Part shown: piece by piece, positions 1-16,293 of the stretch
Numbering within the stretch: the first letter of the stretch is position 1
Layout of the letters: each line of letters opens with the position of its first letter
Source: Alkalilimnicola ehrlichii MLHE-1
GTDB lineage: Bacteria > Pseudomonadota > Gammaproteobacteria > Nitrococcales > Halorhodospiraceae
Reading direction: 5' to 3'
DNA length: 32,000 nucleotides
Assembly: GCF_000014785.1 (NCBI RefSeq)
Contig: NC_008340.1
Location: 2,040,001-2,072,000 of the forward strand
Program-made: the position numbers and the translations under genes
Notes under the pieces: generated by a model
Database searches by the model: none
The model's input: only the letters and a program-made list of their open reading frames with translations
What the model was told of the DNA's origin: nothing

Positions 1-1
1 G

Positions 2-430
2 GTGGTGCTGGTCGGTCCGGGGTGGCTGGCGGCCACCAAGGGCACCGACTTCGCACGGCTGGCGGGGCGTGCCAACGGCGAGACCGAGATCGTGCAGCTG
101 CTTTCGGCCTGGCAGATAGAGAATGGCGTGGCGCACTCACGGGACGTGGCATTGGCCACGCCCCGCAACCGCCTGGCCGCGCAGGCCGCACTGGAACTGC
201 CCGAGCGCCGGATCCGCGAGGCCGAGGTGGCCGTGGTCGATGGCGACGGCTGTGCGCTGATGCGCCAGGAGGTGCATGGCAGCTTCGATGCGCCGGAGAT
301 CGAGGAGCCGCACTTCCTGGAGGTGCTGCTCGGCGCCCCGCTGGACCTGCTGAAACGCGGGCTGGATGCCCTATCCATCAGCCCGGAGGACTGCGAGGTC
401 TTCTACGAAGGCGACGTTGCCGCGCCATGA
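2..430 (+). CDS. 3' end of a larger host gene cut by the window edge; possibly an AsmA-family C-terminal region (tentative)
   Basis: The open frame runs from the window edge to TGA at 428-430 with host-like high GC. The family guess rests only on the recalled pattern around ...IENGVAHSRDVALATPRNRLAAQAALELP... Confidence 0.4.
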   Translation: MVLVGPGWLAATKGTDFARLAGRANGETEIVQLLSAWQIENGVAHSRDVALATPRNRLAAQAALELPERRIREAEVAVVDGDGCALMRQEVHGSFDAPEIEEPHFLEVLLGAPLDLLKRGLDALSISPEDCEVFYEGDVAAP

Positions 431-447
431 GCGCGGCTGGTTATGCA

Positions 448-711
448 TTATTCGTAGTGGCTCCAGAGCCTCAGAACTTTTACCACCCGATCTTCTTCCA
501 ATACTTGGTAGACCAGACGATGCTGAATATTGATGCGGCGCGAATAGGCCCCCGCGAGATCCCCAATGAGTTTCTCGAACGGAGGCGGCTTGCGGTAAGG
601 GTCCTCTGAAATCAGCGCCAACAATTCCTGGGCTTTTGGTTTGAGGCCGCTAGAGGCCAGTTTCTTTGCATCTTTCTGGGCTTGCTTGGTGTAAACCAAC
701 TTCCATGTCAC
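448..711 (-). CDS. yoeB: YoeB/Txe-family type II toxin (mRNA interferase)
   Basis: 87 aa. Typical YoeB sequence (MTWKLVYTKQAQKDAKKL...RRINIQHRLVY...LWSHYE with the C-terminal His-Tyr). 4-nt ATGA overlap with the upstream antitoxin gene. Confidence 0.85.
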   Translation of the reverse strand: MTWKLVYTKQAQKDAKKLASSGLKPKAQELLALISEDPYRKPPPFEKLIGDLAGAYSRRINIQHRLVYQVLEEDRVVKVLRLWSHYE

Positions 712-950
712 CAGTCCATCTCCTCATCGCATTCGTCCACAGGGGTATCCATCCCCTCACGAATAGACTCCCTCATGCCCGGTACGGAGAGCAGATAAAG
801 TGTTTCCTGAATCGCAGACCAGTCTTCCTCGGAAACCAAGACGGCTTTGTTCCGCTTACCCGTGATGACGATTGGTTGGTGGGACTCGGCGGTCTCGTCA
901 ATCAACCGATAAAGGTTGCTGCGCGCCTCAGTTGCTGTGATTCCGGTCAT
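708..950 (-). CDS. yefM: Phd/YefM-family antitoxin
   Basis: 80 aa. The N-terminus (TATEARSNLYRLIDETAESHQPIVITGKRNKAVLVSEEDWSAIQETLYL) is classic YefM/Phd, with an acidic C-terminal tail. Overlaps yoeB by 4 nt. Confidence 0.85.
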   Translation of the reverse strand: MTGITATEARSNLYRLIDETAESHQPIVITGKRNKAVLVSEEDWSAIQETLYLLSVPGMRESIREGMDTPVDECDEEMDW

Positions 951-983
951 GACGCACCTCTTGCGTGTTCAACTTTTCACCAA

Positions 984-1021
984 GTGTACGCCTTTGGGTA
1001 CGTACGTCAAGACGAACGTAC
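984..1021 (-). promoter_or_regulatory. Putative yefM-yoeB promoter/operator with repeated GTAC cores
   Basis: GTAC cores at 986-989, 998-1001, 1002-1005 and 1018-1021, 35-70 nt upstream of the yefM ATG. TGTACG (985-990) and GGTACG (997-1002) are 12 bp apart. On the minus strand TTGACG (1011->1006) could act as a -35. Confidence 0.35.
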
Positions 1022-1237
1022 TGCATAACGCCCGGCCCCCAGCAGGTCAACCAGATCGGTGTGGCCACGGCCCCGCTGCACGTCCGGCACCCAGTGCAGG
1101 TAGCGCATGGTCGAGTGCAGATCCTTATGCCCCTTGCCTTGCTCGATGCGAAGCTGAGAGCGCTCGCCGTCAATGTCCGTGACCCGCACCGCGACCAGCT
1201 CACTGACCCGTAACCCCTTCGCTCTAACGCCAGCCAT
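1007..1237 (-). pseudogene. Remnant of a tyrosine recombinase gene (5'-truncated, internally deleted)
   Basis: The 76-aa ORF contains GLRVSELVAVRVTDIDGERSQLRIEQGKGHKD (box I region) fused directly to LHSTMRYLHW (the C-terminal Tyr region). Most of the catalytic domain is missing. The apparent ATG lies inside attC 1222-1282. Confidence 0.6.
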
Positions 1238-1282
1238 CAGTTGCGCGACGCAAGGAGCGTCAACTGCATGGCATTGTTATAC
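1222..1282 (-). other. Integron attC site (61 bp) closing the type I R-M cassette
   Basis: Plus strand: CTCTAAC-gccaGCCATCAGTTGCGC-gacgcaagga-GCGtCAACTGcATGGCatt-GTTATAC. It is an imperfect palindrome with two unpaired bases on one arm. The minus-strand R'' GTATAAC is the exact complement of the GTTATAC that opens the cassette at 8520-8514. Confidence 0.8.
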
Positions 1283-1303
1283 GCTTTCTGCACCCCAAAA
1301 CGC

Positions 1304-4300
1304 CTATCCGCCGCCGGTGCGCTTTTCCTCACGCACTCGCTTAAAAATCTCCTCGGCAAGGTGCTCATGGGCTGCTGAACGAAACTCCTTGTCGGTCATC
1401 ACACGCGAAAATATGTCTTCGTTGTTTTCCATTCGGTCAATGAACAGTTCATCCAGCATTCGCTCCAGAAATGCGGAGAAGTTTGGCAGGTTGTTTGCCC
1501 TTGCCGCTTCAACGATTTTTTCATTTTCCTCGGCGCTCGCGGTGATCTGATCAAAGAACAGTTGGTCGGCTTCGGTAAAGTCTGTGCCAAAACGTTCGTT
1601 TAGCTTTTCGACCAGTGATGATAGCGGCACGGCTTCCTCCTTCACGCCACTAGTGCCGACATCGGTGGGCCCTTTCAGAGGGTAGGCCTCGCCCGTGCCC
1701 AGGTCGATGGAGCCCTCCGTCATTTGTTGCAGGCGGAAATAGCGCAAGGCCACTTCGTCGTCGAGTGCGAAGGCCTGACCATCGCCAGGAGGGGGAAGCT
1801 TGGAAAGTAAGTTGCGGACGAAGGCGTAAAATTTTTCCAGTTCGCTGTCCTGATACGGAATGATCTGAGATAGAAAAGCGTAGAGATTACGGTAGGCGGT
1901 CAACTGGCCGCGAAACTCTTCTTGCTCCGCTTCCTCCCTGTCACTGAAGCGCGCAACCACCGCATCTAACACTGCATTCATTACCCGGTGGTCGGAAGCA
2001 GAGTGATCCCGTTTGCTCCGATACCATACATCCGCGAAAGCATTGACATCATCGGGCGCAAAGATGGCCCAACCCATAAGTTTGTGTTGCAGCTCGGACA
2101 ACTGGTGCGGATCGGCATTCTCGCCGACAGGTGTAGCCTCGTAGTAGGGCTTGAAGGACTGATAGATATCGTCTTCCTCGTTGGCGAAGTCCAGCACGAA
2201 GGTACGGGCCTTGCCCGGTGCCACACGATTGAGGCGAGACAGGGTCTGCACTGCCTGGACACCGGCCAGGCGTTTGACTACATACATGGTCTGCAGCAGC
2301 GGCTGGTCGAAACCGGTCTGGTATTTCTCCGCGACCAGCAGCACACGGTAATCCTCGCGCTCGAAGGTTTCCGGCAGCTCGCTTTCCGCCAGACCGTCAT
2401 TCATCGCGACCTCGGTGTAAGCGGAACCGGGGTCGTCTGGATCTTCAACGCTACCGGAGAAAGCGACCAGCGAGCGTATGCCGCCATAGCCGTTGTCCTT
2501 GATATAGCGGTCAAAGGCCAATTTGTATTTCACCGCAGCCAGCCGCGATCCAGTCACTACCATGGCTTTGGCACGCCCGCCCATTTCGCTCATCACATAC
2601 AACCGGAAGTGCTCGACGATCACCGAGACCACCTGCTCGATATTGACCGGGTGCAATTCCAGGTAGCGGCTCAGGGCCTTGGCGGCTTTCTTGCGCGGTA
2701 CTTCCGGGTCGTTCTCAACCTGCTTGATCAGGCCGAAGAAGCGCTTGTAGGTGGTGTAGTTCTGCAGCACGTCCATGATGAAGCCTTCTTCGATGGCCTG
2801 ACGCATGGAGTATTCGTGAAACGGAGAGCTGCCGGAGGGGCCCGGTTCATCGAAAAGGGCCTTGGTCTTGAATTTCGGCGTGGCGGTAAAGGCAAAGAAA
2901 CTAAGGTTTGGTTGCCGTGCCCGCTTCAGCGAATCGCGAAGAATAGCGGCCTTGGCTTCATCCGACAGCGCATCGTCTTCCTCATCCGACAACTGGGCGG
3001 CTATGGCCGCCTCGATGCCATCCTTGTTCAGCATGCCCCGCAATTCAGAAGCTGTCTCGCCGCTCTGGGAGGAATGCGCCTCGTCCACAATCACAGCAAA
3101 ACGCTTGCCGGCGGTGCTGATTTTCACCCCTGTGCCCTTTTTCTCCAGCGTAGAAAGGGCCTGGGAAATGAAGGGGAATTTCTGCAAGGTGGTGATAATG
3201 ATCGGCGTGCCGCCGGACAGGGCCTGAGCCAATTGCTGGGTGTTCTCGTCGATCTTCTCCACCACCCCGGTCTTGTGCTCGAACTGGTAGATGGTGTTCT
3301 GCAACTGCTGGTCCAGCACGCGCCGGTCAGTGACCACCACCACCGAGTGGAACACCTTCTGATCCTCGGCATCGTGCAGGCTGGCCAGCCGGTGCGCCAG
3401 CCAGGCGATGGAATTGGACTTGCCGGAACCGGCCGAGTGCTGGACCAGATAATTGTGCCCCGAGCCATTGGCCCGTGCATGGACCACCAGCCTGCGCACC
3501 GCGTCGAGCTGGTGATAGCGGGGGAAGATCATGGTTTCCTTGCGGATGGTGCGCACGCCCTTGTCGGTCTTGACCTGCCGCTCCTTCACCTCCAGGTGCA
3601 TGAAGCGTTGCAGGATGTCCATCAGGCTGTCCTTCTCCAGCACCTCATCCCACAGGTAGTGGGTCTTCCAGTTGTTCTCCACTGGTGGATTGCCTGCGCC
3701 ATGATCATGCCCGCGGTTGAAGGGCAGAAAGACGGTATCCTTGCCCTTCAGGCGCGTGGTCATCCATGCCTCGTCCGGGTCCACGGCAAAATGCACCAAG
3801 GCGCGCTTTTTGAACGCAAACAACAGGTCGCGTTCATCGCGGTCCTGCTTGTATTGCTTGACCGCATCTGCCGCCCGCTGGCCGGTGAGCGAGTTTTTCA
3901 ATTCTGCGGTGACCACCGGCAGGCCGTTCAAGCTCAGAGTGACATCGATAATGCAGCGGCGGTTTTTGGTTGATTTTGGACCATCGGCCTTCTTCATCAC
4001 CGAAGTAAAAGCCACCTGCCGGGTGACCGTTAGCCGGTTCAGTGCGTAGGCGGCCGCCGCCTCCGGGTTCATGCCGGAATTGGGCCGGAAATGCGCCAGC
4101 CGGAAGGTCTTGCCGTAACATTTGAAGCCGTAGCGCAGCACATGCAGGGTGCCCTTGATCTCCAACTCCTTGGCCAGGCTGTGCAGCACCGTGGCGCGAG
4201 TCTTTTCGCCCAGCAAGGCTTCCAGTTGGCCCCACTTGGCCGCTTGGCTGTCCTGCAAAAAACCGGTGACATCCTCTGGGAATATCGCCAACGCCTCGTC

Positions 4301-4393
4301 GTAGGCTGAGGCATTGCGTTTCTCATAGCCGCCCGCACTGGTCAGGCTGGCTTCTATGGCGGTTTCAAAAGCGAGTTCGGAGTGGCCAGCCAT
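1304..4393 (-). CDS. hsdR: Type I restriction enzyme R subunit (helicase/endonuclease)
   Basis: 1029 aa. Walker A (SAGSGKSNS), DEAH box (VIVDEAHSSQSG) and SF2 helicase layout. Last gene of an hsdM-hsdS-orf-hsdR operon. Confidence 0.9.
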   Translation of the reverse strand: MAGHSELAFETAIEASLTSAGGYEKRNASAYDEALAIFPEDVTGFLQDSQAAKWGQLEALLGEKTRATVLHSLAKELEIKGTLHVLRYGFKCYGKTFRLAHFRPNSGMNPEAAAAYALNRLTVTRQVAFTSVMKKADGPKSTKNRRCIIDVTLSLNGLPVVTAELKNSLTGQRAADAVKQYKQDRDERDLLFAFKKRALVHFAVDPDEAWMTTRLKGKDTVFLPFNRGHDHGAGNPPVENNWKTHYLWDEVLEKDSLMDILQRFMHLEVKERQVKTDKGVRTIRKETMIFPRYHQLDAVRRLVVHARANGSGHNYLVQHSAGSGKSNSIAWLAHRLASLHDAEDQKVFHSVVVVTDRRVLDQQLQNTIYQFEHKTGVVEKIDENTQQLAQALSGGTPIIITTLQKFPFISQALSTLEKKGTGVKISTAGKRFAVIVDEAHSSQSGETASELRGMLNKDGIEAAIAAQLSDEEDDALSDEAKAAILRDSLKRARQPNLSFFAFTATPKFKTKALFDEPGPSGSSPFHEYSMRQAIEEGFIMDVLQNYTTYKRFFGLIKQVENDPEVPRKKAAKALSRYLELHPVNIEQVVSVIVEHFRLYVMSEMGGRAKAMVVTGSRLAAVKYKLAFDRYIKDNGYGGIRSLVAFSGSVEDPDDPGSAYTEVAMNDGLAESELPETFEREDYRVLLVAEKYQTGFDQPLLQTMYVVKRLAGVQAVQTLSRLNRVAPGKARTFVLDFANEEDDIYQSFKPYYEATPVGENADPHQLSELQHKLMGWAIFAPDDVNAFADVWYRSKRDHSASDHRVMNAVLDAVVARFSDREEAEQEEFRGQLTAYRNLYAFLSQIIPYQDSELEKFYAFVRNLLSKLPPPGDGQAFALDDEVALRYFRLQQMTEGSIDLGTGEAYPLKGPTDVGTSGVKEEAVPLSSLVEKLNERFGTDFTEADQLFFDQITASAEENEKIVEAARANNLPNFSAFLERMLDELFIDRMENNEDIFSRVMTDKEFRSAAHEHLAEEIFKRVREEKRTGGG

Positions 4394-4396
4394 GGA

Positions 4397-5008
4397 TCAA
4401 ATCTCCTGTATCGAGGTGTTCTGCAACTCGGCCAGCGCCTGGCCGTGCACCTCGTCAAAATGGTAATAGCGTATGGATGGATCAGCGCGGAGTTGCCGAT
4501 TGGGTTCCAGATAGGCGTCTGGGTTGTCATTCTCGGCAAAGACGAATTTGCGAAGATGAATTCGGCGCTTGTCACCGGTGTAATGCTCGATGGTGCGCTT
4601 GAGGCTGTGGACCCAACAGGCACCCGCCCTGAGCTGAGGGACAATCTTTTCAGCAGTCAAACTCTTGGATTTGAACTCGATACAGTCCGCGTAAAACCTT
4701 TGGCCGTTCACATAGAAAATAACGAAGTCGCAGCGCTTTGACCAAGGCTTAGCTGTATCGTCTAGAAAGTGGAAAAGAGGCGGTTTACTCTTTTTCCGCT
4801 GCAACTCAACCTGATCATGGTCCAACTTGAAAGCCAATCCCGGCCCCGGCAAAAGAAGCTGTATTTTCCTTGTTTTCGCGCGGGTCCCTGTTGGAGGAAA
4901 ATACTTTTCTTTCAGGATGACTTCACCTCCCACGCCATCATGCATCACATATCGACTATTTACATAGGCCTTCAGGTGCTCGAAATAGGTGGAGGCTGCC
5001 AACGTCAT
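4397..5008 (-). CDS. Hypothetical protein with a PD-(D/E)xK-like motif, embedded in the type I R-M operon
   Basis: 203 aa. Its start overlaps the hsdS stop (ATGA at 5005-5008) and its stop is 3 nt from the hsdR start. ...KRCD94FVIFYVNGQRFYADCIE111FK113SKS... fits D-x(n)-ExK on consecutive beta-strand-like segments (codons about 4670-4729). No family recognised. Confidence 0.55.
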   Translation of the reverse strand: MTLAASTYFEHLKAYVNSRYVMHDGVGGEVILKEKYFPPTGTRAKTRKIQLLLPGPGLAFKLDHDQVELQRKKSKPPLFHFLDDTAKPWSKRCDFVIFYVNGQRFYADCIEFKSKSLTAEKIVPQLRAGACWVHSLKRTIEHYTGDKRRIHLRKFVFAENDNPDAYLEPNRQLRADPSIRYYHFDEVHGQALAELQNTSIQEI

Positions 5009-6264
5009 TGCAGACCTCCGATTTGGCCAGTGACGGCAGCGGTAATTAGTGCAGAGCGATATTCTTCTAGCTTCTGGACACTACGCTTTACTTCATCTGC
5101 AGCGAAGCGATTCTCTCGATCTACACGTGAACAATAGTCGGCAATCTCAGTTTGCTCATCTAGAAAGGGAATTGGTAACACAAACGCACCAAGCGCTTCT
5201 CGATTTACTTTAGGCATCGCAACGCGAAGTGACTCAAGCTCGGCATAAGCCGTAAACGCATCAGTTAGAAGAAAATAAAATAAGTACCGACGTTCAAAAT
5301 ACTTCCCGGGGTCAATAGCGTACATATCTGCACTGCAAAGACACACTGAATCAAATAACGCAACCTTTCTGAGTGCAGGGCGAATCTTTGAGTATAGAAC
5401 AGAGCCCTCAGAGCAGAAGTATTTCCCGCTAATTGCTCCCTGTTCCTCGGCACTAGGGACATCGTATAGTCGTCCAGTACCGCTTTCTATATAGTCGGGA
5501 GCAATTAAAGGCATATCTGTATACTCAGGCTCGCGAGGATCGACTTGCCCACTTTGTACTTGGCATCTCCATTTGAATGGAACCAGATCCCAATGCGCAG
5601 GAATATCACCCAGCCAGTCGATGCCGGAGGGTTTCATGGGGGCTTCGGGGTTAAGGCCCTTGGTGACGGCGCGGGTGATCAGGGCCTGGCGCTTTTCCGC
5701 CAGCCGGTCCAACAGGGCGCGCTTTTTCTCGATCAGGCCATCGATGCGGGCGGTCTTCTCATCCAGAAACTGCGCGATGCGGCGCTGGGTTTCGAGGGGT
5801 GGGAGCGGCATTTCGATAGTGACCAGCTCACTAGCGTTAATCGCCGGATAGCTGACCCCGACCGAGCGCGAAACAACCTCCGATACAAACGGCTCAGATT
5901 TCGCGGCCCAACCGAGGTATCCACTATCGACTTCTTCCCTGTCTGGTCGAACAACACAAAAACCTGTCGAAGCAATCAGGTCTGGCGAAGCTTCGTCAAC
6001 CTTGGCAATGGCCCTGAGGTAAGTCCGAACTGTAGAAATCAATATGTCGCCGCTTCGCACTTTACGACGAGCACGAGAGGGAGCCTTCCCGAAAGTAATA
6101 CGCTCTACCTGCTCAACTCCACGAGATAGGGAAACACCTGAGATCTCAACGTAGTCGATCTCGGCCTCTTCATCAGTGCTTTCTGGTAAGACCTCATCAT
6201 TATAGGTAGCTAGGTATTTGAGGCGCTTGCTTGACCATGTCGCTGGAAGTGTTACGTCAATCAT
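5005..6264 (-). CDS. hsdS: Type I R-M specificity subunit
   Basis: 419 aa. Two target-recognition-domain-like halves are separated by a conserved coiled-coil spacer (PPLETQRRIAQFLDEKTARIDGLIEKKRALLDRLAEKRQALITRAVTKGL). The C-terminal repeat of the same type is KLEEYRSALITAAVTGQI. Overlaps hsdM by 4 nt. Confidence 0.9.
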   Translation of the reverse strand: MIDVTLPATWSSKRLKYLATYNDEVLPESTDEEAEIDYVEISGVSLSRGVEQVERITFGKAPSRARRKVRSGDILISTVRTYLRAIAKVDEASPDLIASTGFCVVRPDREEVDSGYLGWAAKSEPFVSEVVSRSVGVSYPAINASELVTIEMPLPPLETQRRIAQFLDEKTARIDGLIEKKRALLDRLAEKRQALITRAVTKGLNPEAPMKPSGIDWLGDIPAHWDLVPFKWRCQVQSGQVDPREPEYTDMPLIAPDYIESGTGRLYDVPSAEEQGAISGKYFCSEGSVLYSKIRPALRKVALFDSVCLCSADMYAIDPGKYFERRYLFYFLLTDAFTAYAELESLRVAMPKVNREALGAFVLPIPFLDEQTEIADYCSRVDRENRFAADEVKRSVQKLEEYRSALITAAVTGQIGGLQ

Positions 6265-8438
6265 CCCACCAATCCCCTTAAAAGCCCGGCAATTTCCCCT
6301 TCCAGTTCGGTAATCTCCTGCTCGATCTCGTCCAGCGGACGCGGTGGCTTGTAGACGTAGAAATGCCGGTTGATCGGGATTTCATAACCCACCTTGGTCT
6401 TGCTGTAGTCCACCCAGGCATCATCCACATGGGGCAGCACCTCGCGGGCCATGTAGGCGTCGATCTCGGCCCGGAAGGCGGTCACCAGCTTGTCATTGGG
6501 TTTGTCCGGGCCGAACTGCATTGGCAGGGGCAGTTGGGTGCCCTCGGGCAAGGGGATGTTCTCGGTGTCGCGCAGTTCGCTGTCAGGCTCCGGTCTGCCC
6601 TTGCTGTCGCGGCAAATTTCGGCATCGGGGTCGCGCTCGCCCAGAGCGTTGAAGATGGCCTTTTTGATCGGTACCGGGAGTTTGAGGCTAGCCACCTTGG
6701 CAGCGGCGTTCAGATCCGCTTCGAAAACGGCGCGGTCGGTGTACTGCCCCTTGGGTGCTAGGCTCGCCAACAGAGCGCGAATCGCCTCCTGCTGCTTTTG
6801 CCCTTCCGCGATCTCCTTGGCAGCCGCAGCCTCATTCTTGCGTTTTTTCGAGGTGGCCAGGTTGGCAAAGGCGGTCTGCTCATCCAGCCGGGCAATGCGC
6901 TCCGGCGAAGCTTCGAAGTTCATGCGCAGGGGGCGCTCCACCGTCACCTTGAGAAAGCCGAACTCGCGGTTCTCGAAAATGCGGGAGACCACACGGGTTT
7001 CGGTGTCGCCGTTGATTCTTACCTCGGCGGTTTCACCGTCCCGGTTGTTACCGTAGAGTCGGGTCAGATCGCGGATCTGGTCTTCGGTGACCTCGTTACG
7101 CTTGTTGTTGAGGCTTTTCTTCATGCGCTGGAAAAAGCGTGTGCCGTCGATTAGTTGCACCTTGCCGCGCCGCTCCGGGGCCTTGCGGTTGGTCACCAGC
7201 CAGACATAGGTGAAAATACCGGTGTTGTAGAAAAGCTGGTCGGGCAGCGCGACGATGGCATCGAGCCAGTCGTTTTCGATAATCCAGCGGCGGATATTCG
7301 ACGGCCCGGAACCGGCATCACCGGAAAATAGCGGCGAGCCATTGAAGACGATGGCGATCTTGGAACCGACGGAGTCGTCATCCCCCTCTTTGTAGGGGTG
7401 CATCTTGGCGATCATGTGCTGCAGGAACAGCAGGGAGCCGTCATTGATGGCGGGCAGGCCGGCGCCGAATCGTCCGGCAAAGCCCATCTCCTTGTGTTCT
7501 TTCTCGACGACGGTTTTCTGGTCTTTCCACTCCACACCAAAGGGCGGATTAGCCAGCAGGTAGTGAAACTGCTTGCCCTCGAAGCCGTCGCGGGTCTTGC
7601 CGTCGCCCAGGGTATCGCCCAGCACGATGCTGCTGGTGTCTTCATCCTTGATCAGCATGTCCGAACAGCAGATGGCCCAGGACTCGTCGTTGTACTCCTG
7701 ACCGAACAGCGCCAAGTTAGCCTGACTGTTCTGGTCGAGGATGAATTTCTCCGATTCCGACAGCATGCCGCCCGTACCGCAGGCCGGGTCGTAAATAGTG
7801 CGGTAGATGCCCGGCGTGTAAACATCCTGTTCGCCGGTGTAGACCAGATTGGCCATCAGGCGGATGACTTCGCGCGGGGTGAAGTGGTCCCCGGCCTCTT
7901 CGTTGGCCTGCTCATTGAAGCGCATCACCAGATGCTCGAACAGGTAGCCCATTTGCAGGTTGTCGATGCGGTCCGGGTGCAGGTCCACTTCTGACATCGC
8001 CTTGACGATGGTAAACAGCCGGTTGCTGGCGTCGAGTTTTTCGATCTGGTCAGTGAATTTAAAACGCTCGAAGATGGCCCGAGCCGTAGGCGAGAAACCG
8101 TTGATATAGGCGACAAGGTTAGGCGCAATGTTCTCCGAATCCCCCAACAATTTCTCGAAGATGAACGGACTGGTGTTGTAGAGAGGGTGGGTTCGGTCAG
8201 GATCGGCCGCCTTGCCCAACAGCTTCTCCATGGCATTTTCCGGCATACCTTGAGCGGACAGCTTTTCGTATTGCTTCAGCACCGCTTCTTTGGTGGGCTC
8301 CAGCACACAATCCAGTCGCCGCAGCACGACCATAGGCAGCATGACCAAGCGGTACTGAGGGGGGCGGTAAGGGCCGCGAAGGCGGTTGGCGATTTCCCAG
8401 ATGTGGCTTTTGAGCTGGTCGTGCAACTGCAAGTTCAT
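6261..8438 (-). CDS. hsdM: Type I R-M N6-adenine DNA methyltransferase subunit (long form, 725 aa)
   Basis: HsdM N-terminal region, AdoMet motif (DPACGTGGML) and catalytic NPPFG (LLANPPFGVEW). A long C-terminal extension is present. AAGGA lies upstream of the ATG. Confidence 0.9.
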   Translation of the reverse strand: MNLQLHDQLKSHIWEIANRLRGPYRPPQYRLVMLPMVVLRRLDCVLEPTKEAVLKQYEKLSAQGMPENAMEKLLGKAADPDRTHPLYNTSPFIFEKLLGDSENIAPNLVAYINGFSPTARAIFERFKFTDQIEKLDASNRLFTIVKAMSEVDLHPDRIDNLQMGYLFEHLVMRFNEQANEEAGDHFTPREVIRLMANLVYTGEQDVYTPGIYRTIYDPACGTGGMLSESEKFILDQNSQANLALFGQEYNDESWAICCSDMLIKDEDTSSIVLGDTLGDGKTRDGFEGKQFHYLLANPPFGVEWKDQKTVVEKEHKEMGFAGRFGAGLPAINDGSLLFLQHMIAKMHPYKEGDDDSVGSKIAIVFNGSPLFSGDAGSGPSNIRRWIIENDWLDAIVALPDQLFYNTGIFTYVWLVTNRKAPERRGKVQLIDGTRFFQRMKKSLNNKRNEVTEDQIRDLTRLYGNNRDGETAEVRINGDTETRVVSRIFENREFGFLKVTVERPLRMNFEASPERIARLDEQTAFANLATSKKRKNEAAAAKEIAEGQKQQEAIRALLASLAPKGQYTDRAVFEADLNAAAKVASLKLPVPIKKAIFNALGERDPDAEICRDSKGRPEPDSELRDTENIPLPEGTQLPLPMQFGPDKPNDKLVTAFRAEIDAYMAREVLPHVDDAWVDYSKTKVGYEIPINRHFYVYKPPRPLDEIEQEITELEGEIAGLLRGLVG

Positions 8439-8513
8439 TTAGTTGATTATCCTTTTGATATTAGTGCGTGTTTCTGTAGATAATGTTCTCAGGTGAAGCG
8501 GTATTGTGAGTGC

Positions 8514-8603
8514 GTATAACGCAAAGGTAACCGGCGCCGGAGCGCCAGCGGGGGGAACCAAAAGCGGAACGCTTTTGGCGTCCGGTTGACCGCTTGGTTA
8601 GAG
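8514..8603 (-). other. Integron attC site (90 bp) closing the DUF867 cassette
   Basis: Plus strand: GTATAAC-gcaaaGGTAACCGGCGCC...GGCGtCCGGTTgACCgcttg-GTTAGAG. T and G are unpaired on the arm next to GTTAGAG. A perfect 9-bp inner hairpin (CCAAAAGCG-gaa-CGCTTTTGG) is present. The ORF stop codon (8598-8600) lies inside the R'' box. Confidence 0.85.
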
Positions 8604-9212
8604 CAGGCCTGCACGAATCAGCCCCTGACGAACGGCATCGACAAATTTATAGAACACGTCAGTCTGGCGTGCTCTTCCAGCTTTATTGAGAGACTCAAAG
8701 AGAGTGCTTCTCAAGCCGCGGGAGAGCTCTAATTGAACACCAGCTCCGCTCGTTCCGCGATTACAGATATTCGCTCGTGATGTCCCTTGAAGATTCGGGT
8801 TTTCATGCTTGCGCACGGTAAAACCGGCCTCTGCAAGTGCTTCGCTTATTTGAGAGCGCAGCAGCGCATCGGCACCGCCAGCAAATACCGTTTCCCCTGG
8901 GCTGTTTTCACCATGTATTGCTACAGCAGTGCGAGACCGCGCGACTACTTCGACACAACGAGGTTCATCGAAATTCGTACTGGTTATATGCAAGTCCCGG
9001 TTCTTGGCTACCTTAGTACCCTCAAAAATTGCGAAACTAAACTGCTCGCCTGCAATAGCAAAGGCCAACTCTGATGTGCCTGGCTCAATTGCACCACCAT
9101 GCGGGGCAATCACAGCTACCGCTGCTTCGTCTCGCACCGCCACCTGAACGCGAAAATCGCGCCCTTCAGTTTGCTCAGCTTTAAGTGCTTTAAAATTTGA
9201 GTATCTGTCCAT
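8598..9212 (-). CDS. Poly-gamma-glutamate hydrolase family (DUF867 / PghP-like) protein
   Basis: About 204 aa. APHGGAIEPGTSE and ...AVAIHGE... match the remembered HGG-IE-GT and downstream His zinc-ligand pattern of the family. The ATG at 9212 is preferred over the TTG at 9215. Confidence 0.65.
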   Translation of the reverse strand: MDRYSNFKALKAEQTEGRDFRVQVAVRDEAAVAVIAPHGGAIEPGTSELAFAIAGEQFSFAIFEGTKVAKNRDLHITSTNFDEPRCVEVVARSRTAVAIHGENSPGETVFAGGADALLRSQISEALAEAGFTVRKHENPNLQGTSRANICNRGTSGAGVQLELSRGLRSTLFESLNKAGRARQTDVFYKFVDAVRQGLIRAGLL

Positions 9213-9219
9213 CAATTCG

Positions 9220-9288
9220 CTCTAACGCTCAACTAAGCCGCTGGGCGGAGCGTAGCGTAGCCCAGTCGGCTTGAGTGTTATGTTAGCG
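9220..9288 (-). other. Integron attC site (69 bp) closing the membrane-protein cassette
   Basis: Plus strand: CTCTAAC-GCTCAActaAGCCGcTGGG-cggagcgtagcgtag-CCCAgtCGGCTTGAGt-gttat-GTTAGCG. The minus-strand R'' CGCTAAC is the exact complement of GTTAGCG at the cassette start (10209-10203). A tandem partial box GTTAT/GTTAGCG leaves the exact R'' register ambiguous. Confidence 0.75.
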
Positions 9289-10188
9289 ATTCGACATAAC
9301 ACGATAGAACTCTCTCACTGCACTTGCGAACGCGGAGCGTTCCCTAAGCAGTCGCACATACGTCGGCAGATTAAATCCGATAACGGGAGAGAGCAGATTG
9401 CCACGAATGCTGCCGGCCAGCATGGATATTGGCCCGCTCAACTTCTCCGCACAGTCAATAAATTGTTGGCATTCCTGTACGTTCACTTGATTATGGAACT
9501 CTTGGATGTAATTGGGATTATTCACATCGACTATTGGTACATGAATCCACATCTTTCTCCCGATCTCCTCAAGAGCCTGCACTGCCTCATCAAAGGCATC
9601 CGGCATTCCCCAGCCCGAACATAGTATTGTGTAGTTCCTTCCCTTTATTCGATGAACTTGTACCGTGGCCTGCGACAGTTGCTCTCTCGCTGATAGGAAT
9701 TCTCTAGTCTGGCTCAGGGCCCAGTCCACCTTAAATTTTGCCTCACGAGCGTTACTCCCTCTTTGGACCTCATTCACCGCTTCAACGAGGGACTCTACGA
9801 AGAGCTGCGCATCAGTTACAAGTTGGTTGGTTGTTCCAAAAAAATGCTCGATTTCGCCCGCTGTCTGGGTTCTAAGCTGCGCCTGTTGCTGCTGCTTCCA
9901 GCTCACGGTTGCCGTATGAAATGCCACCACAAAGCCACCAAGAGTTACCGCTGCGGTGGCAAGTCCTACTTTGTAAGCCTCCGGCTGTCCGTTGAACCAC
10001 AATACCAACTCGCCAGGGGAAAATGGCTCTACACCGAGCACAGTCTCCGCCCCTACGTATAGTGATATCGCCAGCGCTAGTGCACCCAATGCAGTGCCGA
10101 AAAGAAAGTGCACCAACATCCCAATCGAAATGAACGCGTAGAACGCTGGAACGGCCACTTGAGGTGGAATGCGCTGGAATATCTTCAT
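9283..10188 (-). CDS. Hypothetical membrane protein (2-3 N-terminal TM helices plus a helical soluble domain)
   Basis: The ORF track gives 9283-10266. I prefer the ATG at 10188 (MKIFQRIPPQ...), which is preceded by GGGAG. The hydrophobic stretches are AVPAFYAFISIGMLVHFLFGTALGALALAISLYVGA and VGLATAAVTLGGFVVAFHTATV. No family recognised. Confidence 0.55.
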   Translation of the reverse strand: MKIFQRIPPQVAVPAFYAFISIGMLVHFLFGTALGALALAISLYVGAETVLGVEPFSPGELVLWFNGQPEAYKVGLATAAVTLGGFVVAFHTATVSWKQQQQAQLRTQTAGEIEHFFGTTNQLVTDAQLFVESLVEAVNEVQRGSNAREAKFKVDWALSQTREFLSAREQLSQATVQVHRIKGRNYTILCSGWGMPDAFDEAVQALEEIGRKMWIHVPIVDVNNPNYIQEFHNQVNVQECQQFIDCAEKLSGPISMLAGSIRGNLLSPVIGFNLPTYVRLLRERSAFASAVREFYRVMSNR

Positions 10189-10202
10189 ACGTCTCCCAGA
10201 CT

Positions 10203-10274
10203 CGCTAACGCCGCGCTCTGCGGCAAATTTGGAGCGCAGCGGAGAATTTGTCCGACAGCAGCGCATTGTTAGGG
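10203..10274 (-). other. Integron attC site (72 bp) closing the CHAT-like cassette
   Basis: Plus strand: CGCTAAC-gccGCGCTCTGCGGCAAATT-tggagcgcagcggag-AATTTGtCCGaCAGcAGCGCatt-GTTAGGG. It forms a long imperfect stem with unpaired bases on the arm next to GTTAGGG. The minus-strand R'' CCCTAAC is the exact complement of GTTAGGG at the cassette start (11148-11142). Confidence 0.85.
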
Positions 10275-10277
10275 ATT

Positions 10278-11126
10278 TTACGTGGCAACAATATCATCCT
10301 TAGATAAAGGGAAGCGCGCATCATTTTCTGGAAAATCAGCAATGAAGAAGAACCTTTTTCTGAGTTTATCAAAGTGCTGATCTTCAGATGCAAGACCTTT
10401 CTTTACTTGCTGTCTGGCCCATGCCACACCACGTCTCTTTACGTCGGGGTTTTTCATCGCCTCAGAAACAAGGCGTTCTACCCTTTCTTTCTTCCCTTTC
10501 CCGACACAGTGACTTTTATAGTAGGCTCGGTAAGCCCTTGAAAATAGTCCAGCAGCGCTTAAAAAATGATAGGTTCGATCTTGATGCTCTGCCCCTTCAT
10601 TAAGGATACCTATGGCTTTATCACCATCGAGGTCGAAAAAGAAGGACTCATAAAACCGACCGAAATTATCCTGAATATGCCCAGCAGTTACTTCTACCTC
10701 CGGACCAATTATTGCCCAGAAAGGAGCCGCATCTAGCCTTGTAGATGCTTTTATTAAATGGGCACCATTGCAGGCAGCAATTACAATCATCAGATTTAGC
10801 TTAGTCGCTCGGTTAATCTCAATAAGTATCTCTCTGATTTCATCCCATTCAACCAGTTCTCCGCTAGCGGTTCCCAAGCCGTCTTCACACCCATGACACT
10901 CAAAGTGGATCATTGGATATATTCCGCTCAAAGCCTCATTTCGTATTTTTTCTAATACGTCAAACAGCTCGGACTTAGTTATTGGCTCAGCGAATTCGAC
11001 GACAAGGTCTTGCTGTACCTGCTTAGCCTTGTCCAGCTGATTGTCGAAGAGATTTTTCCCGGTTCTAAGCTCACCTGATGGTAAAGATTCTATAACCCAC
11101 AGCTTATTGAAAATATTTCCGGACAT
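10278..11126 (-). CDS. Putative clan-CD (caspase/CHAT-like) cysteine peptidase, single-gene cassette
   Basis: 282 aa. A hydrophobic strand followed by His-Gly (PMIHFEC-H78-G) and, 41 residues later, a hydrophobic strand followed by Cys (LMIVIAA-C119-NGA). This is the order and context of the caspase-hemoglobinase-fold catalytic dyad. H78 codon 10893-10895; C119 codon 10770-10772. Motif-level call only. Confidence 0.5.
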   Translation of the reverse strand: MSGNIFNKLWVIESLPSGELRTGKNLFDNQLDKAKQVQQDLVVEFAEPITKSELFDVLEKIRNEALSGIYPMIHFECHGCEDGLGTASGELVEWDEIREILIEINRATKLNLMIVIAACNGAHLIKASTRLDAAPFWAIIGPEVEVTAGHIQDNFGRFYESFFFDLDGDKAIGILNEGAEHQDRTYHFLSAAGLFSRAYRAYYKSHCVGKGKKERVERLVSEAMKNPDVKRRGVAWARQQVKKGLASEDQHFDKLRKRFFFIADFPENDARFPLSKDDIVAT

Positions 11127-11141
11127 GACGATTCCATTTAT

Positions 11142-11217
11142 CCCTAACGCGCAGCGTAACCGGTCGGATTTGGAGCGTCAGCGGAAAAGCCGATCCGTGT
11201 TGACGCTGTTGTTGTGC
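11142..11217 (-). other. Integron attC site (76 bp) closing the DUF262-HEPN cassette
   Basis: Plus strand: CCCTAAC-gcgCAGCGTAACCGGTCGG-atttggagcgtcagcggaaaag-CCGAtCCGtGTTgACGCTGtt-GTTGTGC. The 16-nt arm pairs perfectly once T, T and G on the other arm are flipped out. The minus-strand R'' GCACAAC is the exact complement of GTTGTGC at the cassette start (13051-13045). Confidence 0.85.
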
Positions 11218-11260
11218 TAAGCTGACGGATCGAATTCGTCTCGCCGCCACTCCTTATCCA

Positions 11261-11893
11261 TTACTCTGCACAATTCATAATATTATTTTGGAAACAATCC
11301 GATAAAACCAGAAGCATCCTTTGCGTAAACGTGACGTGCTCCCTGATATCTATCGTCGACAAATCCGGGTCATCGCCATGCGCAATACTATGGCGCCACC
11401 TCACAAGCTCGTTGTCTATTTTAAGGCGCCACCGCAAGAATGGAGAGCAATCGAACCCCATGACTTCGAAGTTGTCTTTTAACTTTCTGAAATCTAGATT
11501 TGATCTAGAAGAAACCACTTCCTTATCAAAATTCAAAAAGTCCCCTCTTGTCACTTCCTGAAATCGCAAGATAAACTCTACTGCTGCAAGCTGAGAATGA
11601 TTTCTATCTCTGAGCCTTTGAAAATCAGACTGGAGCAACCCAATCAGCATTGGCCAAGAGACATCTGAAACCTTCTTTCTAGCCTCCCTCAAAAAATCTA
11701 TGTAAAGAGATACGCAATCGTTATAAAACCCTTCCCAGTGAGAATAGGATAAAACGATAACTGCCTTCGACTGGACCCCAAATTGCGCAATAGAGCCTAG
11801 CTCATTCATTCGGACTTTTATCTCTGACAGTTCCTTGGCTCGGCGCAAGCGGATCGAATCCAAGTCTGAGAGAAATTGAAAAACATCGCTCAT
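11261..11893 (-). CDS. HEPN-domain protein (MAE_28990/MAE_18760-like), predicted RNase effector
   Basis: About 210 aa. Rx4H motif W-R-H-S-I-A-H-G (codons 11378-11395) near the C-terminus, plus the upstream YSHWEGF element typical of this HEPN family. The ATG at 11893 overlaps the DUF262 TGA (ATGA). The ORF track starts at 11908. Confidence 0.7.
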   Translation of the reverse strand: MSDVFQFLSDLDSIRLRRAKELSEIKVRMNELGSIAQFGVQSKAVIVLSYSHWEGFYNDCVSLYIDFLREARKKVSDVSWPMLIGLLQSDFQRLRDRNHSQLAAVEFILRFQEVTRGDFLNFDKEVVSSRSNLDFRKLKDNFEVMGFDCSPFLRWRLKIDNELVRWRHSIAHGDDPDLSTIDIREHVTFTQRMLLVLSDCFQNNIMNCAE

Positions 11894-12999
11894 TGTGGAG
11901 AAAACCAATTCTCACCAAATGGTACGGTTCTTTGGATCCGAGTAGTCCCTCGCAAGCCTGACGCACTCAACTCGGCGACATCTCTTTCTCGCCAGAACCG
12001 ATCGACGCGCTCACGCAAAAAACCATCCGGGTCTTCCAAGTCCTGAATTTTTTCTTTGTTTCTGGCGACCCCTACCAATATCGCTTCCAGTGCACGCAGA
12101 GAAAATCTTTTGGCTATTCCTTGATAAGCCTCGTCATGAGGAATCAAGGCATCGCCCCCGAATAAGCTATGCAAGCTATTGACGGCCCATTCCACCGTAT
12201 GGATCACATCATTCGGATCTTGATCCACGATAATTCGCGCAATACTTCGGTCGAGGAACTCCTGAACATCAGCATCTGAGCCAAAATCTTCGACTGTATG
12301 AACAATAGCACGAACCGCATATTCAACATCTTTTTGTTTTAAATTCTGCTCTTCCGTAATTTTAAAAATATTTATAAATTCTTCGCTTCTTGCCAGATTC
12401 CTTATTCGAGCGGTAGCATCTGCATTTCCAAGCACCATTGAACAAGTGCGGACTTCCTGCTCATTAGCGTACTCGCCACCCCGATTCAATCGCTGAAACA
12501 AATCAAATTTCGTTTTTGCGTCACTTGGGTGTTTAAGTATCTGGAAATCCAAGCGTGACCGACGAAAGAAAAGCTGAAGAGATTTTTCAAGAACTTGAGC
12601 ACCTCCATCTCCTCCTTCTGTTGGCCACACGACACCATCTAAGGACGGAAGATAGGTTGCAGTTGTCAGAGTAGAAGGCGGCATCTTCTCTGCAGGATTA
12701 TCTGGTTCGCGCAAAACGCCCATGAACTCGAGCACTGTGGAGATACGTTGTAACCCGTCTATCAGCTCCCATGTTCCATCTGGCTTTTCATATGCGAAAG
12801 CCGGGGGCACAGGGATTCCAATCAAAATCGATTCGATAAAAGCCGTCTTCTTTTCAGGAGACCAACGAAATAATCTCTGAAAATCAGGGATAATATCTAG
12901 CTCCTCCGCCGCATACATGGAAGCGATCTCCCCAATGGAGATTTGCAAACTATCGGTAACAACTGATCGCTTTGCGGTTTCTAGTTCATTTCTTAACAT
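11890..12999 (-). CDS. DUF262 (ParB/Srx-fold, GmrSD-N-like) protein lacking a DUF1524/HNH nuclease domain
   Basis: DFQRLFRW, IDGLQR and FQRLNRGG motifs match the DUF262 signature (QR..W, DGQQR, LN.GG). The ATG at 12999 is preceded by GAGGG at 7-nt spacing. The ORF could extend to 13017. Confidence 0.75.
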   Translation of the reverse strand: MLRNELETAKRSVVTDSLQISIGEIASMYAAEELDIIPDFQRLFRWSPEKKTAFIESILIGIPVPPAFAYEKPDGTWELIDGLQRISTVLEFMGVLREPDNPAEKMPPSTLTTATYLPSLDGVVWPTEGGDGGAQVLEKSLQLFFRRSRLDFQILKHPSDAKTKFDLFQRLNRGGEYANEQEVRTCSMVLGNADATARIRNLARSEEFINIFKITEEQNLKQKDVEYAVRAIVHTVEDFGSDADVQEFLDRSIARIIVDQDPNDVIHTVEWAVNSLHSLFGGDALIPHDEAYQGIAKRFSLRALEAILVGVARNKEKIQDLEDPDGFLRERVDRFWRERDVAELSASGLRGTTRIQRTVPFGENWFSPQ

Positions 13000-13044
13000 T
13001 AAGCAGCCCTCAAGCATGGAGAATCATAAGCAGAAATTTCATCT

Positions 13045-13063
13045 GCACAACGCCTAGTTAACC
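13045..13063 (-). other. attI-like simple site at the head of the cassette array
   Basis: Minus strand: GGTTAAC-taggc-G|TTGTGC. The GTTGTGC core is cognate to the R'' of the first cassette's attC. A related 19-bp site (plus strand GTTCAAC-gcctt-GTTGCAC) lies at 13140-13158. Overlaps the last codons of the IS91 tnpA ORF. Confidence 0.5.
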
Positions 13064-14343
13064 GGCCCGCATCGAGGCAAATAAAAATGCCGATCGCCCT
13101 CATTCACCTCGGACCTCCTCGAAGGCACTAGCGGGTCCGGTTCAACGCCTTGTTGCACACTGCCCGAAGCCTTCGGAGGCGACCCACTTCTTATTAGGGA
13201 ATTTTGAATCCGGTGGCGACTCGGGGGAAGCGTGAATCCCCGGATCAGCTCGGCACCGCAAGCGGGACAGCACAGGGCGTCGCTATGGCCAAGCATCTCC
13301 AGGTACGCCTGCCAGGTCTGCTTCTTCGGCTCCACTTCGGGCATAGGCGCCCCCATTTGTTCTCGGCAAGCCATTCGCTTGGCACGGCAGGTGTGGGCAT
13401 ACAGACCAACGTGGCGGACGGTGTGCTGACCCGGCTCCGGGACATGCCACAGGATCTGTTCCATGAATCGCTCCACCGCCACACGCCGCAGTTTCCGTCG
13501 ACCATCCCGGTGGTCATGGTAACGGAATTGAACCTGGCCTTCCCCCAACGACTTGATCCGGGTGTTTGTGATGGGTCCGCCGCGCACGTAGCGAGACAGG
13601 TACGCAGCGACTCCTCGTCCATGTGTATAGCGGCCCTGCAAACGGACATTCCATTCTTTCTTCGCAGTGGCCTTGAGCCAGTAATCCACGGTCGGATGAT
13701 CGCCACGGGGCGCTTTCAGTCGGCCAGTATCCAGATCATGGCGCAGACGGGAGAGTAGTTTGCCCCGGAACACGCGCTTCACCACGGCCGCAGGCAGCAG
13801 AAAGTCACCCTTCACCGCTCGCCACTGTCCACCCGTCGTCAATCCACCCCCACTGATCAAGCAGTGAACATGGGGGTGGGCGTTAAGGGTTCGACCCCAC
13901 GTGTGCAGGGCCATCACAATGCCGGGGACCGCCCCTAGGTGACGATCTTGCGCAAGCAGTTGGATGAGGGTGTCCCGACTGGCATCGAATAGCGCGGCCA
14001 CGAAGGACCGGCGGTTGTACCGCCACAGGGGGATCAATTCATGGGGCACGGTAAAGATAGCGTGGAAATGATCGCAAGGCAGCAGGCGGCCTCGTTCACG
14101 CTCCATCCACTGTGCCTTGGCACGCTCCGCACATTGCGGGCAGCTACGATGCCGGCACGAGTGGTACTGCACGCGGCGGTGGTGGCCATGGGGACAACAC
14201 TGCTCGTGGCCCCCCAGCGCTTCCGTCCGGCAATTCATAATCGATTCTGCCGCTTTGAGCTGCGGGAGCGGAAAACAATGATGTTTACGAAGCCCATCAA
14301 AATGCTCCAGAAATACGTCCTGAATGGTCGGCTTCCTTGCCAT
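13054..14343 (-). CDS. tnpA: IS91-family (HUH, Y2) rolling-circle transposase; element ends not defined
   Basis: 429 aa. N-terminal Cys/His zinc-binding region (CCPHGHHRRVQYHSCRHRSCPQC), HUH motif (HPHVHCLISGGG), YxxxY pair (YLSRY) and C-terminal CPACG. The last approximately 55 aa look non-conserved and run over the attI-like sites. Confidence 0.85.
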   Translation of the reverse strand: MARKPTIQDVFLEHFDGLRKHHCFPLPQLKAAESIMNCRTEALGGHEQCCPHGHHRRVQYHSCRHRSCPQCAERAKAQWMERERGRLLPCDHFHAIFTVPHELIPLWRYNRRSFVAALFDASRDTLIQLLAQDRHLGAVPGIVMALHTWGRTLNAHPHVHCLISGGGLTTGGQWRAVKGDFLLPAAVVKRVFRGKLLSRLRHDLDTGRLKAPRGDHPTVDYWLKATAKKEWNVRLQGRYTHGRGVAAYLSRYVRGGPITNTRIKSLGEGQVQFRYHDHRDGRRKLRRVAVERFMEQILWHVPEPGQHTVRHVGLYAHTCRAKRMACREQMGAPMPEVEPKKQTWQAYLEMLGHSDALCCPACGAELIRGFTLPPSRHRIQNSLIRSGSPPKASGSVQQGVEPDPLVPSRRSEVNEGDRHFYLPRCGPVN

Positions 14344-14590
14344 TGATTGAGCCTCCTGTACGGCGCTCCATGCCGTATATTACAGACATTGCAACGCGGC
14401 ATGTCTTCGCCAACTAACTGAAAAATCGCAACATCTGCCGCGAAGCGGCTTTGTGCAACAGTTGATTCTACTGCGTCTGTAGAGGCGGTGATATGCAGAC
14501 GCCGCATGTCACACCCGGGATACTTGATATCGAACCAGTCGGTGGCGCATGCTTATCGTGCATAGTCATGGACTGACGGAGTAAGGAATC

Positions 14591-15979: not shown

Positions 15980-16293
15980 GACCGCCCCGGAGGGTCCTGG
16001 CCCAGAAAGCGGGCACGCTACCGCCAGTACGACATTGGGGGGCCCCCTGCCGTAGTCTCTATAGCCAGCTCAAGGCATCAGCGATCCGACAATGCCCAAG
16101 TGTTCAAAGCTACCGGCGACCGGTCACCCTGGTGACTTCCGGCAGTCCGAGCACTGCATCACATCCTGGGCGTTTTTACGCATGGTCGCCTCCGCAGCGC
16201 TCCAGTTGCAAGTCCGCCCCGGCATCCCCACCTTTGCCCCAGCCCCCTCCACCGCTAAAATGGCGGCCCGCTTCCCCAACCTGCCGTGACTGC

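Follow-up and report, generated by a model that had tools for sequence, protein, structure and literature searches.

A predicted type I restriction-modification operon that appears to form one 7.3-kb gene cassette in the chromosomal integron of Alkalilimnicola ehrlichii MLHE-1

In a 32,000-nucleotide stretch of the Alkalilimnicola ehrlichii MLHE-1 chromosome (NC_008340.1, positions 2,040,001 to 2,072,000; hereafter the window, in whose own numbering all positions are given) four genes of a predicted type I restriction-modification (R-M) system, hsdM, hsdS, orf203 and hsdR, lie between two attC sites of an integron. Our comparison suggests that the whole operon is one genuine integron gene cassette of 7,292 bp, the sixth in the array, a reading to which we assign a probability of about 0.85. 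A first-pass annotation, made from the letters of the window, had proposed that the operon is bounded as a single cassette and would therefore be exchangeable by the integron integrase IntI; the 7,292-bp unit delimited here and the copies of it in other arrays both speak for that proposal.

In an attC site it is the folded bottom strand to which IntI binds, and the cut falls between the A and the C of AAC on that strand. The attC at 8514-8603, which belongs to the preceding cassette, ends on the minus strand in G|TTATAC (G at 8520, TTATAC at 8519-8514), as the annotation had read it, and crossover in this R' box, GTTATAC, would open the R-M cassette. Its bottom strand consists of GTATAAC, GCAAA, GGTAACCGGCGCC paired with GGCG-T-CCGGTT-G-ACC, GCTTG and GTTAGAG, with a bulged G and a bulged T 6 bp apart and a DNA fold z-score of -3.4. 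The attC at 1222-1282, which closes the cassette, reads on its bottom strand CTCTAAC, GCCAG, CCAT-CAGTTG-CGC paired with GCG-T-CAACTG-C-ATGG, CATT and GTTATAC, again with two bulged bases 6 bp apart, and has a modest z-score of -2.6. The bulged bases of both sites lie on the bottom strand, which is the + strand in the window. As the annotation had also seen, this second site opens with GTATAAC, the exact reverse complement of GTTATAC, so the cassette begins with TTATAC, reverse-complementary to its own R'' box, GTATAA(C); the spacer from the hsdR stop codon to the site, however, is 21 nt and not the 22 nt originally counted. The same first-six-bases rule holds for all six cassettes of the array, and for the neighbouring cassettes in three further loci (L083, L104 and L106): in each, the cassette's R'' box is matched exactly, in reverse complement, by the six bases that follow the crossover G, as would be seen if every unit had at some time been a circle closed at G|TT.

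To call attC sites we used a grammar that requires inverted R''/R' boxes with AAC/GTT and at least 5 of 7 positions paired, followed by an unpaired spacer of 4-6 nt, 3-4 bp, a bulged base, 5-7 bp, a second bulged base and 3 bp. The window has four matches without mismatch, at 13158-13045, 9288-9220, 8603-8514 and 1282-1222, each of them on the minus strand. Over 1.66 Mb of other loci, zero-mismatch matches fell only at true attC sites, and random sequence of the same composition gave 0.24 matches per 15.5 kb when up to two mismatches were allowed. A looser grammar added the less regular sites 11217-11142 and 10274-10203, completing an array of six cassettes (C1 to C6 in Table 1), all on the minus strand and headed by intI and attI, in which the R-M block is the sixth and has the orientation of the rest. 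The read sets SRR32708590 and SRR9436228 also contain this array. For the attC of C2 a first candidate, 11217-11154, was dropped because it broke the first-six-bases rule for C3; an R' box at 11148-11142 restores the rule. Other ways of finding the sites served less well. The bulged bases defeated an ungapped inverted-repeat finder, which picked up none of the attC sites; hairpin scans by energy, anchored at AAC/GTT, were too unspecific, with many matches in coding DNA, and in their first version missed 8603-8514; an Rfam scan of the window returned nothing, attC not being an Rfam family. A covariance model for attC was set aside, as sites of variable length could not be aligned with MAFFT and only ~4 distinct canonical seeds were at hand, and the grammar with its controls was used instead.

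The interior of the block is that of an operon. The hsdM start codon (ATG at 8438) lies 75 nt past the core site, hsdM and hsdS overlap by 4 nt, as do hsdS and orf203, and orf203 and hsdR are 3 nt apart, all in agreement with the annotation. Its statement that there is no room for an internal attC stood as well: between 1283 and 8513 the looser grammar with up to one mismatch had no match, and with two mismatches, where chance alone predicts 3.2 matches, it gave a single weak one (1910-2017). Operons of this R-M family outside integrons have the same overlapping gene junctions, indicating that they are native operon joints and not cassette joints. The leader is homologous in all five cassette copies compared, and its 5' end, T(T)ATACGCAC, is kept while the DNA upstream of it is unrelated. 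At the level of domains the products match the requirements of a type I system, namely HsdM with HsdM_N and N6_Mtase, HsdS with two target-recognition domains, and HsdR with an N-terminal nuclease domain and an SF2 translocase, so the cargo would be a complete type I restriction-modification defence system. HsdM scored 103 bits against TIGR00497 (cutoff 243) and HsdR 188 bits against TIGR00348 (cutoff 284), and the HsdR subfamily was left unassigned.

Table 1. Features of the window (window positions) and copies of the proposed R-M cassette at other loci (lengths); M, S and R stand for hsdM, hsdS and hsdR.
Feature	Position or length	Strand	Content or support	Opening or upstream sequence	Closing or downstream sequence
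R-M cassette unit (C6), first T of TTATAC to G of own R' box	8519-1228; 7,292 bp	-	M, S, orf203, R; computed; similarity limits of L003, L083, L091, L095	C5 attC, G|TTATAC	G|TTAGAG
Upstream attC (of C5, poly-gamma-glutamate hydrolase)	8514-8603	-	zero-mismatch canonical attC	CTCTAAC	GTTATAC
R-M cassette attC (of C6, R-M operon), 61 nt	1222-1282	-	zero-mismatch canonical attC	R'' GTATAAC	R' GTTAGAG
Leader, core site to hsdM start, 75 nt	8439-8513	-	AAGGA ribosome-binding site ~10 nt before ATG		
hsdM, type I methyltransferase, 725 aa (ABI57136)	6261-8438	-	Pfam N6_Mtase 4.8e-54, HsdM_N 7.3e-22; PADLOC MTase_I 893 bits		
hsdS, specificity subunit, 419 aa, two target-recognition domains (ABI57135)	5005-6264	-	Pfam Methylase_S x2; PADLOC Specificity_I 1.5e-90		
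orf203, accessory gene (ABI57134)	4397-5008	-	PADLOC PD-T4-4_B, E=7e-8		
hsdR, restriction subunit, 1029 aa (ABI57133)	1304-4393	-	Pfam HSDR_N, SWI2_SNF2/ResIII/DEAD, T1R_D3-like; PADLOC REase_I 1.8e-32		
intI, integron integrase, 462 aa (ABI57143, annotated integron integrase at source)	14591-15979	+	TIGR02249, Pfam		
attI crossover core GTTGCAC, array start, no cargo	14453-14459 (G at 14459, TT at 14458-14457); crossover 14459/14458	-	comparison with strain L118		G|TTGCAC
C1, IS91-family transposase	attC 13158-13045	-		GTGCAAC	GTTGTGC
C2, GmrSD_N/NsnA-like + HEPN	attC 11217-11142	-		GCACAAC	GTTAGGG
C3, orf282	attC 10274-10203	-		CCCTAAC	GTTAGCG
C4, open reading frame of ~300 aa	attC 9288-9220	-		CGCTAAC	GTTAGAG
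Tyrosine recombinase gene remnant, 76-aa open reading frame	1007-1237	-	weak TIGR02249 + Phage_integrase matches		
Phd/YefM-YoeB/ParE toxin-antitoxin pair, array end	448-950	-	Pfam		
Copy L083	8,553 bp		M, RhuM, 45-aa gene, S, orf203, R	different attC (TTCTAAC ... G|TTATAC)	same attC (97%), G|TTATTC
Copy L091/L113	7,635 bp		M, 284-aa gene, S, R	third attC, G|TTATAC	same attC, A|TTATTG
Copy L095/L111	7,302 bp		M, S, orf203, R	G|TTGTAC, no clear attC	same attC, G|TTATGC
Copy L104			hsdR end only	contig end	same attC, G|TTAAGC
Copy L003	7,311 bp		M, S, orf203, R	G|TCAGAC, no attC	same attC, G|TTAGAT

The annotation had named in advance a search for the same block flanked by attC sites elsewhere. 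We looked for copies in genome loci of relatives and in metagenome contigs searched with an 18-mer from the R-M attC (about 23 of the 32 loci from the latter were chance matches without attC context and were rejected). The same block with the same 3' attC was found in four other cassette arrays (L083, L091, L095 and L104) and in one non-integron island (L003), with different neighbours in each. Thus the block does carry flanking attC elsewhere and 1222-1282 has the structure of an attC, the two points on which the annotation had let its proposal depend. Three unrelated upstream attC sites, in the window, in L083 and in L091, share the ending G|TTATAC, after which comes GCAC, and on the other side the sequences diverge from the crossover onward (TTAGAG, TTATTC, TTATTG, TTATGC, TTAAGC and TTAGAT). 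In L104 the attC of the next cassette opens with GCTTAAC, the reverse complement of the junction TTAAGC; in L095 the R-M cassette is flanked by GNAT and methyltransferase cassettes and by HigBA and Phd-YoeB cassettes. L003, from a metagenome-assembled genome of Halopseudomonas sabulinigri, is similar to the window from 8515 to 1223, matching the cassette boundaries. The unit has evidently been placed into several different arrays with its junctions at the crossover point, as far as such comparison can tell. Those cassettes whose length is known measure 7.3-8.6 kb and hold four to six genes.

HsdM and HsdR of the sister cassettes are 88-96% identical to those of the window, HsdS only 35-37%. 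The accessory slot differs too, being occupied by orf203 alone, by RhuM, a 45-aa gene and orf203, or by a 284-aa gene. Such differences amid well-conserved HsdM and HsdR indicate that the cassette family diversifies internally in specificity and add-on genes.

The copies also bear on the idea that the block is a composite, an R-M island that entered a cassette by another route, or several cassettes fused after loss of attC, and that it spread by homologous recombination or transfer of array segments and not by IntI. Members of this operon family are common outside integrons, the gene content varies (L083 and L091 in Table 1), and transformation-driven cassette shuffling has been described (PMC12614218). 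No transposase, integrase or repeat, however, is present inside the block or at its edges, and the non-coding DNA between operon and core sites amounts to 75 nt on one side and 21 nt on the other, which leaves no room for a disrupted host cassette. In three arrays the breakpoints lie exactly at G|TT beside mutually unrelated attC sites, which would not result from homologous recombination, and the internal gene junctions are the native ones. We therefore consider a composite origin improbable.

Some attC sites are shared more widely. In L106 the attC (13505-13565) of a small cassette of ~575 bp is ~84% identical to the R-M attC, and ~94% between the R boxes; the upstream attC of L091 is listed among the attC families common to unrelated cassettes. 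A second attC family adjoins the R-M cassette in L083 (927-1010) and L104 (3863-3947) and occurs also in the A. ehrlichii strain L118 (5362-5445). These common families suggest a shared cassette pool or host lineage. In the orphan attC copy of L003 (17172-17236) the 5' arm is expanded by tandem (CATGC)n repeats, and the non-integron island that holds it lies beside DUF3987 and CHC2-primase-like genes.

The R-M family itself is not tied to integrons. HsdM relatives are very widespread and highly conserved, with 80-91% identity across several phyla. Among 21 genome loci with R-M relatives of at least 70% identity, only L003 shares flanking DNA with the window, and in the other 20 no attC-like sequence follows hsdR. 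Free operons of the family, such as those of Methylobacillus flagellatus KT, Salinicola acroporae and Marinobacter sp. ELB17 (HsdM 87-90% and HsdR 80-89% identical to those of the window) have the same gene order and an accessory slot between hsdM or hsdS and hsdR, filled with orf203, RhuM or an M78 peptidase plus DUF4411. Unlike the cassettes, they have no attC after hsdR and no GTTATAC upstream, and their similarity to the window is limited to the coding block. L084, L085, L120 (M. flagellatus) and L121/L122 (Salinicola) were rejected as cassettes for want of attC flanks; a hairpin upstream in L084 has its AAC/GTT boxes out of proper register and was left out of the count. In neighbour-joining trees of HsdR and HsdM the attC-bearing blocks form two tight neighbouring groups, whose nearest relatives are the attC-less L004, L084 and L085. 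Most probably an ordinary chromosomal operon from this widespread R-M family acquired an attC of a local family and thereby took on cassette form.

These relatives also help to judge whether the block is a cassette at all. IntegronFinder clusters attC sites only within 4 kb (PMC4889954), and the attC at 1282-1222 sits 7.2 kb beyond its neighbour; that standard rule would leave it outside and end the array at 8514, in which case the hairpin, with its modest z-score, would be either a terminator or an inverted repeat arisen by chance, and the R-M operon before it an ordinary one of the chromosome. The site, however, has the full attC layout, with AAC/GTT boxes and two bulged bases 6 bp apart, and has no T-run such as an intrinsic terminator has. 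The first bases of the cassette are exactly complementary to its R'' box, the site accompanies hsdR in other arrays, where the crossovers are at G|TT, and nothing like it follows hsdR in the 20 relatives mentioned above. We find it scarcely credible that the array stops at 8514.

If the operon is a cassette, IntI acting on both flanking attC sites would release it as a circle with the predicted junction ...GGCTGGCG|TTATACGCACTC..., leaving in the chromosome a predicted deletion junction ...CCTTTGCG|TTAGAGCGAAG.... The circle would be reinserted at attI (attI x attC); insertion at a secondary site, of which L003 would be an example, would be rare. For expression the operon would depend on upstream read-through or on a weak promoter located in the leader of 75 nt. 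Since specificity subunit and accessory slot are swapped in the sister cassettes, IntI could in this way exchange a whole, diversifying defence operon.

Several points weigh against the cassette reading or its present mobility. The attC grammar was composed after the sites had already been seen, and the attC calls rest on our own rules and not on the covariance model of IntegronFinder. The downstream junction of L091 is ATTATTG and does not begin with GTT; the 5' core has diverged in L095 (GTTGTAC) and L003 (GTCAGAC), and no upstream attC was found in either. In the neighbour-joining trees one cassette subclade has the attC-less Marinobacter block L004 nested next to it, so a single capture event is not proven. 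No promoter of the operon was found, in that no sigma-70 consensus for hsdM lies on the correct strand. The evidence for mobility is wholly comparative. Excision fell at 1.5-3 kb for some attC pairs (PMC5371416), and in a 2026 preprint a 4-kb cassette containing an insertion sequence (IS) was not recovered and recovery dropped with size (10.64898/2026.03.17.712381). Given these published length effects, movement of 7-8.5 kb may be very rare.

Such length effects lead to a rival account of present function only: the block would be a true cassette by descent that is now frozen, with excision at 7.3 kb so rare that it behaves as fixed DNA at the distal, silent end of the array. In addition to the two studies just cited, its position fits this account. 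The R-M cassette is the last of the array, ~6 kb from attI, and is followed by the recombinase remnant and the Phd/YoeB pair, after which core DNA begins; no further attC was found there in the grammar scans. Both attC sites, however, have kept their structure without a single mismatch, and IntI seems undamaged. The cassette family, moreover, occurs in at least four other arrays with different neighbours, which argues that units of this size have moved repeatedly, and the arrays of two A. ehrlichii strains differ completely. A frozen cassette is possible, and we hold it for the less likely state of the locus.

Compared with what has been described, the R-M cassette is standard in every defining structural respect, and its size and class of cargo lie outside what the literature consulted describes. 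With typical cassettes it shares the G|TTRRRY core, an attC of its own, the attC architecture, the first-six-bases rule and the orientation. It differs from them in being polycistronic and ~3.5-4 times the stated maximum of ~2 kb (Cury 2016, PMC4889954); the usual, though not defining, form of one promoterless open reading frame in ~0.5-1 kb is replaced here by four genes in 7,292 bp. The annotation had placed the unit at the extreme of known cassettes, which fits both that maximum and the statement that the number of components of cassette-borne defence systems 'never exceeds 2 components', small restriction systems of types II and IV prevailing and long loci being absent (10.1101/2024.07.02.601686). 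In a study of cassette length, cassettes of up to ~3 kb were tested and those of at least 1,500 bp called 'very large'; the limit on length was noted not to be stringent and may reflect cassette genesis (Loot 2017, PMC5371416). Among the nearest likenesses are the defence cassettes of chromosomal integrons (Darracq 2024, 10.1101/2024.07.02.601686; Kieffer, 10.1101/2024.07.02.601719), which are also bounded by attC and carry anti-phage cargo; the neighbours of the R-M block in the window likewise look defensive (GmrSD_N/NsnA-like plus HEPN, and toxin-antitoxin pairs). Those systems, however, consist of one or two genes, mainly of types II and IV, whereas the MLHE-1 family comprises a three-subunit type I system with an accessory gene in 7.3-8.6 kb. 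The IS-containing cassettes of Vibrio cholerae (for example Sucellos, attC 4 kb apart; 10.64898/2026.03.17.712381) share the long distance between consecutive attC sites. Their length, however, comes from insertion of the IS and their authors inferred them to be immobile, whereas the R-M cassette owes its length to native cargo and recurs as a unit in several arrays. In the literature, of which our coverage was incomplete so that absence is not proof, we found neither a type I R-M, hsdM or hsdR cassette described nor any account of an A. ehrlichii integron.

Published statements on the small size of cassettes have been used to argue that recombination or cassette genesis limits the cargo; an R-M cassette of 7.3-8.6 kb would mean that this limit is not absolute, and that a full R-M operon with a swappable specificity subunit is something IntI can exchange. 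More generally, the balance of evidence tips slightly towards the view that integrons can both make and mobilise cassettes the size of an operon (four to six genes in 7-8.6 kb), full type I R-M systems among them, and that surveys with the 4-kb rule systematically cut such cassettes out. If so, the rule that integron defence has small cargo only would be partly a product of the method. Siblings without attC at 80-90% identity provide a natural before-and-after pair for the unsolved question of cassette genesis, and the near-identical operons with and without attC are material for testing how an attC becomes attached to a gene or operon.

The intI product scored 448 bits against TIGR02249, 'integron integrase' (cutoff 265, model positions 3-315 of 315), has the Pfam domains Phage_int_SAM_4 and Phage_integrase, and contains the catalytic-box segments, including LGH..TTMIYTH; from these matches the integrase at 14591-15979 appears intact. 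Before the region covered by TIGR02249 and Pfam it has an N-terminal extension of ~145 aa (14591-15030), which by eye looks like a second SAM-like domain and which has ~97% nucleotide identity in a second A. ehrlichii strain. Similarity to strain L118 (CP184336) begins at 14457 and continues through intI and mfd at ~96%, which puts the crossover of attI (G|TTGCAC) at 14459/14458; the R'' box of the first attC, GTGCAAC, contains TTGCAC in reverse complement. L118 has the same integron locus beside mfd, with a wholly different array side: no cassette is shared with the window (1-14457) and there is no R-M block. Since the arrays of the two strains differ entirely, there is turnover of cassettes at this locus within the species. 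In L118 intI is broken by an insertion sequence with a DDE transposase, and its array has ISL3 copies. The G+C content of the core DNA is ~70%, 430-15,980 is an island of lower G+C, and the R-M block has ~57%, a point in support of a foreign origin for the R-M cassette.

The conserved accessory gene orf203 had no Pfam, NCBIfam or PDB sequence match, its sole database link being PADLOC PD-T4-4_B. An AF2 model reached a predicted local distance difference test score (pLDDT) of 85.6, and Foldseek gave no significant match to a PDB fold. Its family comprises 625 homologues, all unnamed, in which D63, D94 and E111-x-K113 are invariant; this pattern suggests that orf203 is possibly a PD-(D/E)xK-type nuclease.

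Beyond the last attC, the recombinase remnant has box I (GLRVSELVAVRVTDID...GKGHKD) joined straight to box II (STMRYLH), which points to an internal deletion. It starts right at the R' box of that attC, as if recombination had joined an attC to a site within a recombinase gene. At the other end of the array, C1 (13045-14459, minus strand) consists of an IS91-family (Y2) transposase gene (14343-13054) bounded like a cassette, from the attI G|TTGCAC to a canonical attC of 114 nt, whose R'' box, GTGCAAC, is the exact complement of the cassette start and which overlaps the last ~35 codons of the gene. NF033538 covers aa 6-364 of the 429 of this transposase, the final ~65 residues lying outside the model. 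C2 (11261-13017, minus strand) holds two overlapping genes, one for a GmrSD_N protein (PADLOC NsnA, E=1.5e-47) and one for a RiboL-PSP-type HEPN protein, and is likely a two-gene defence cassette.

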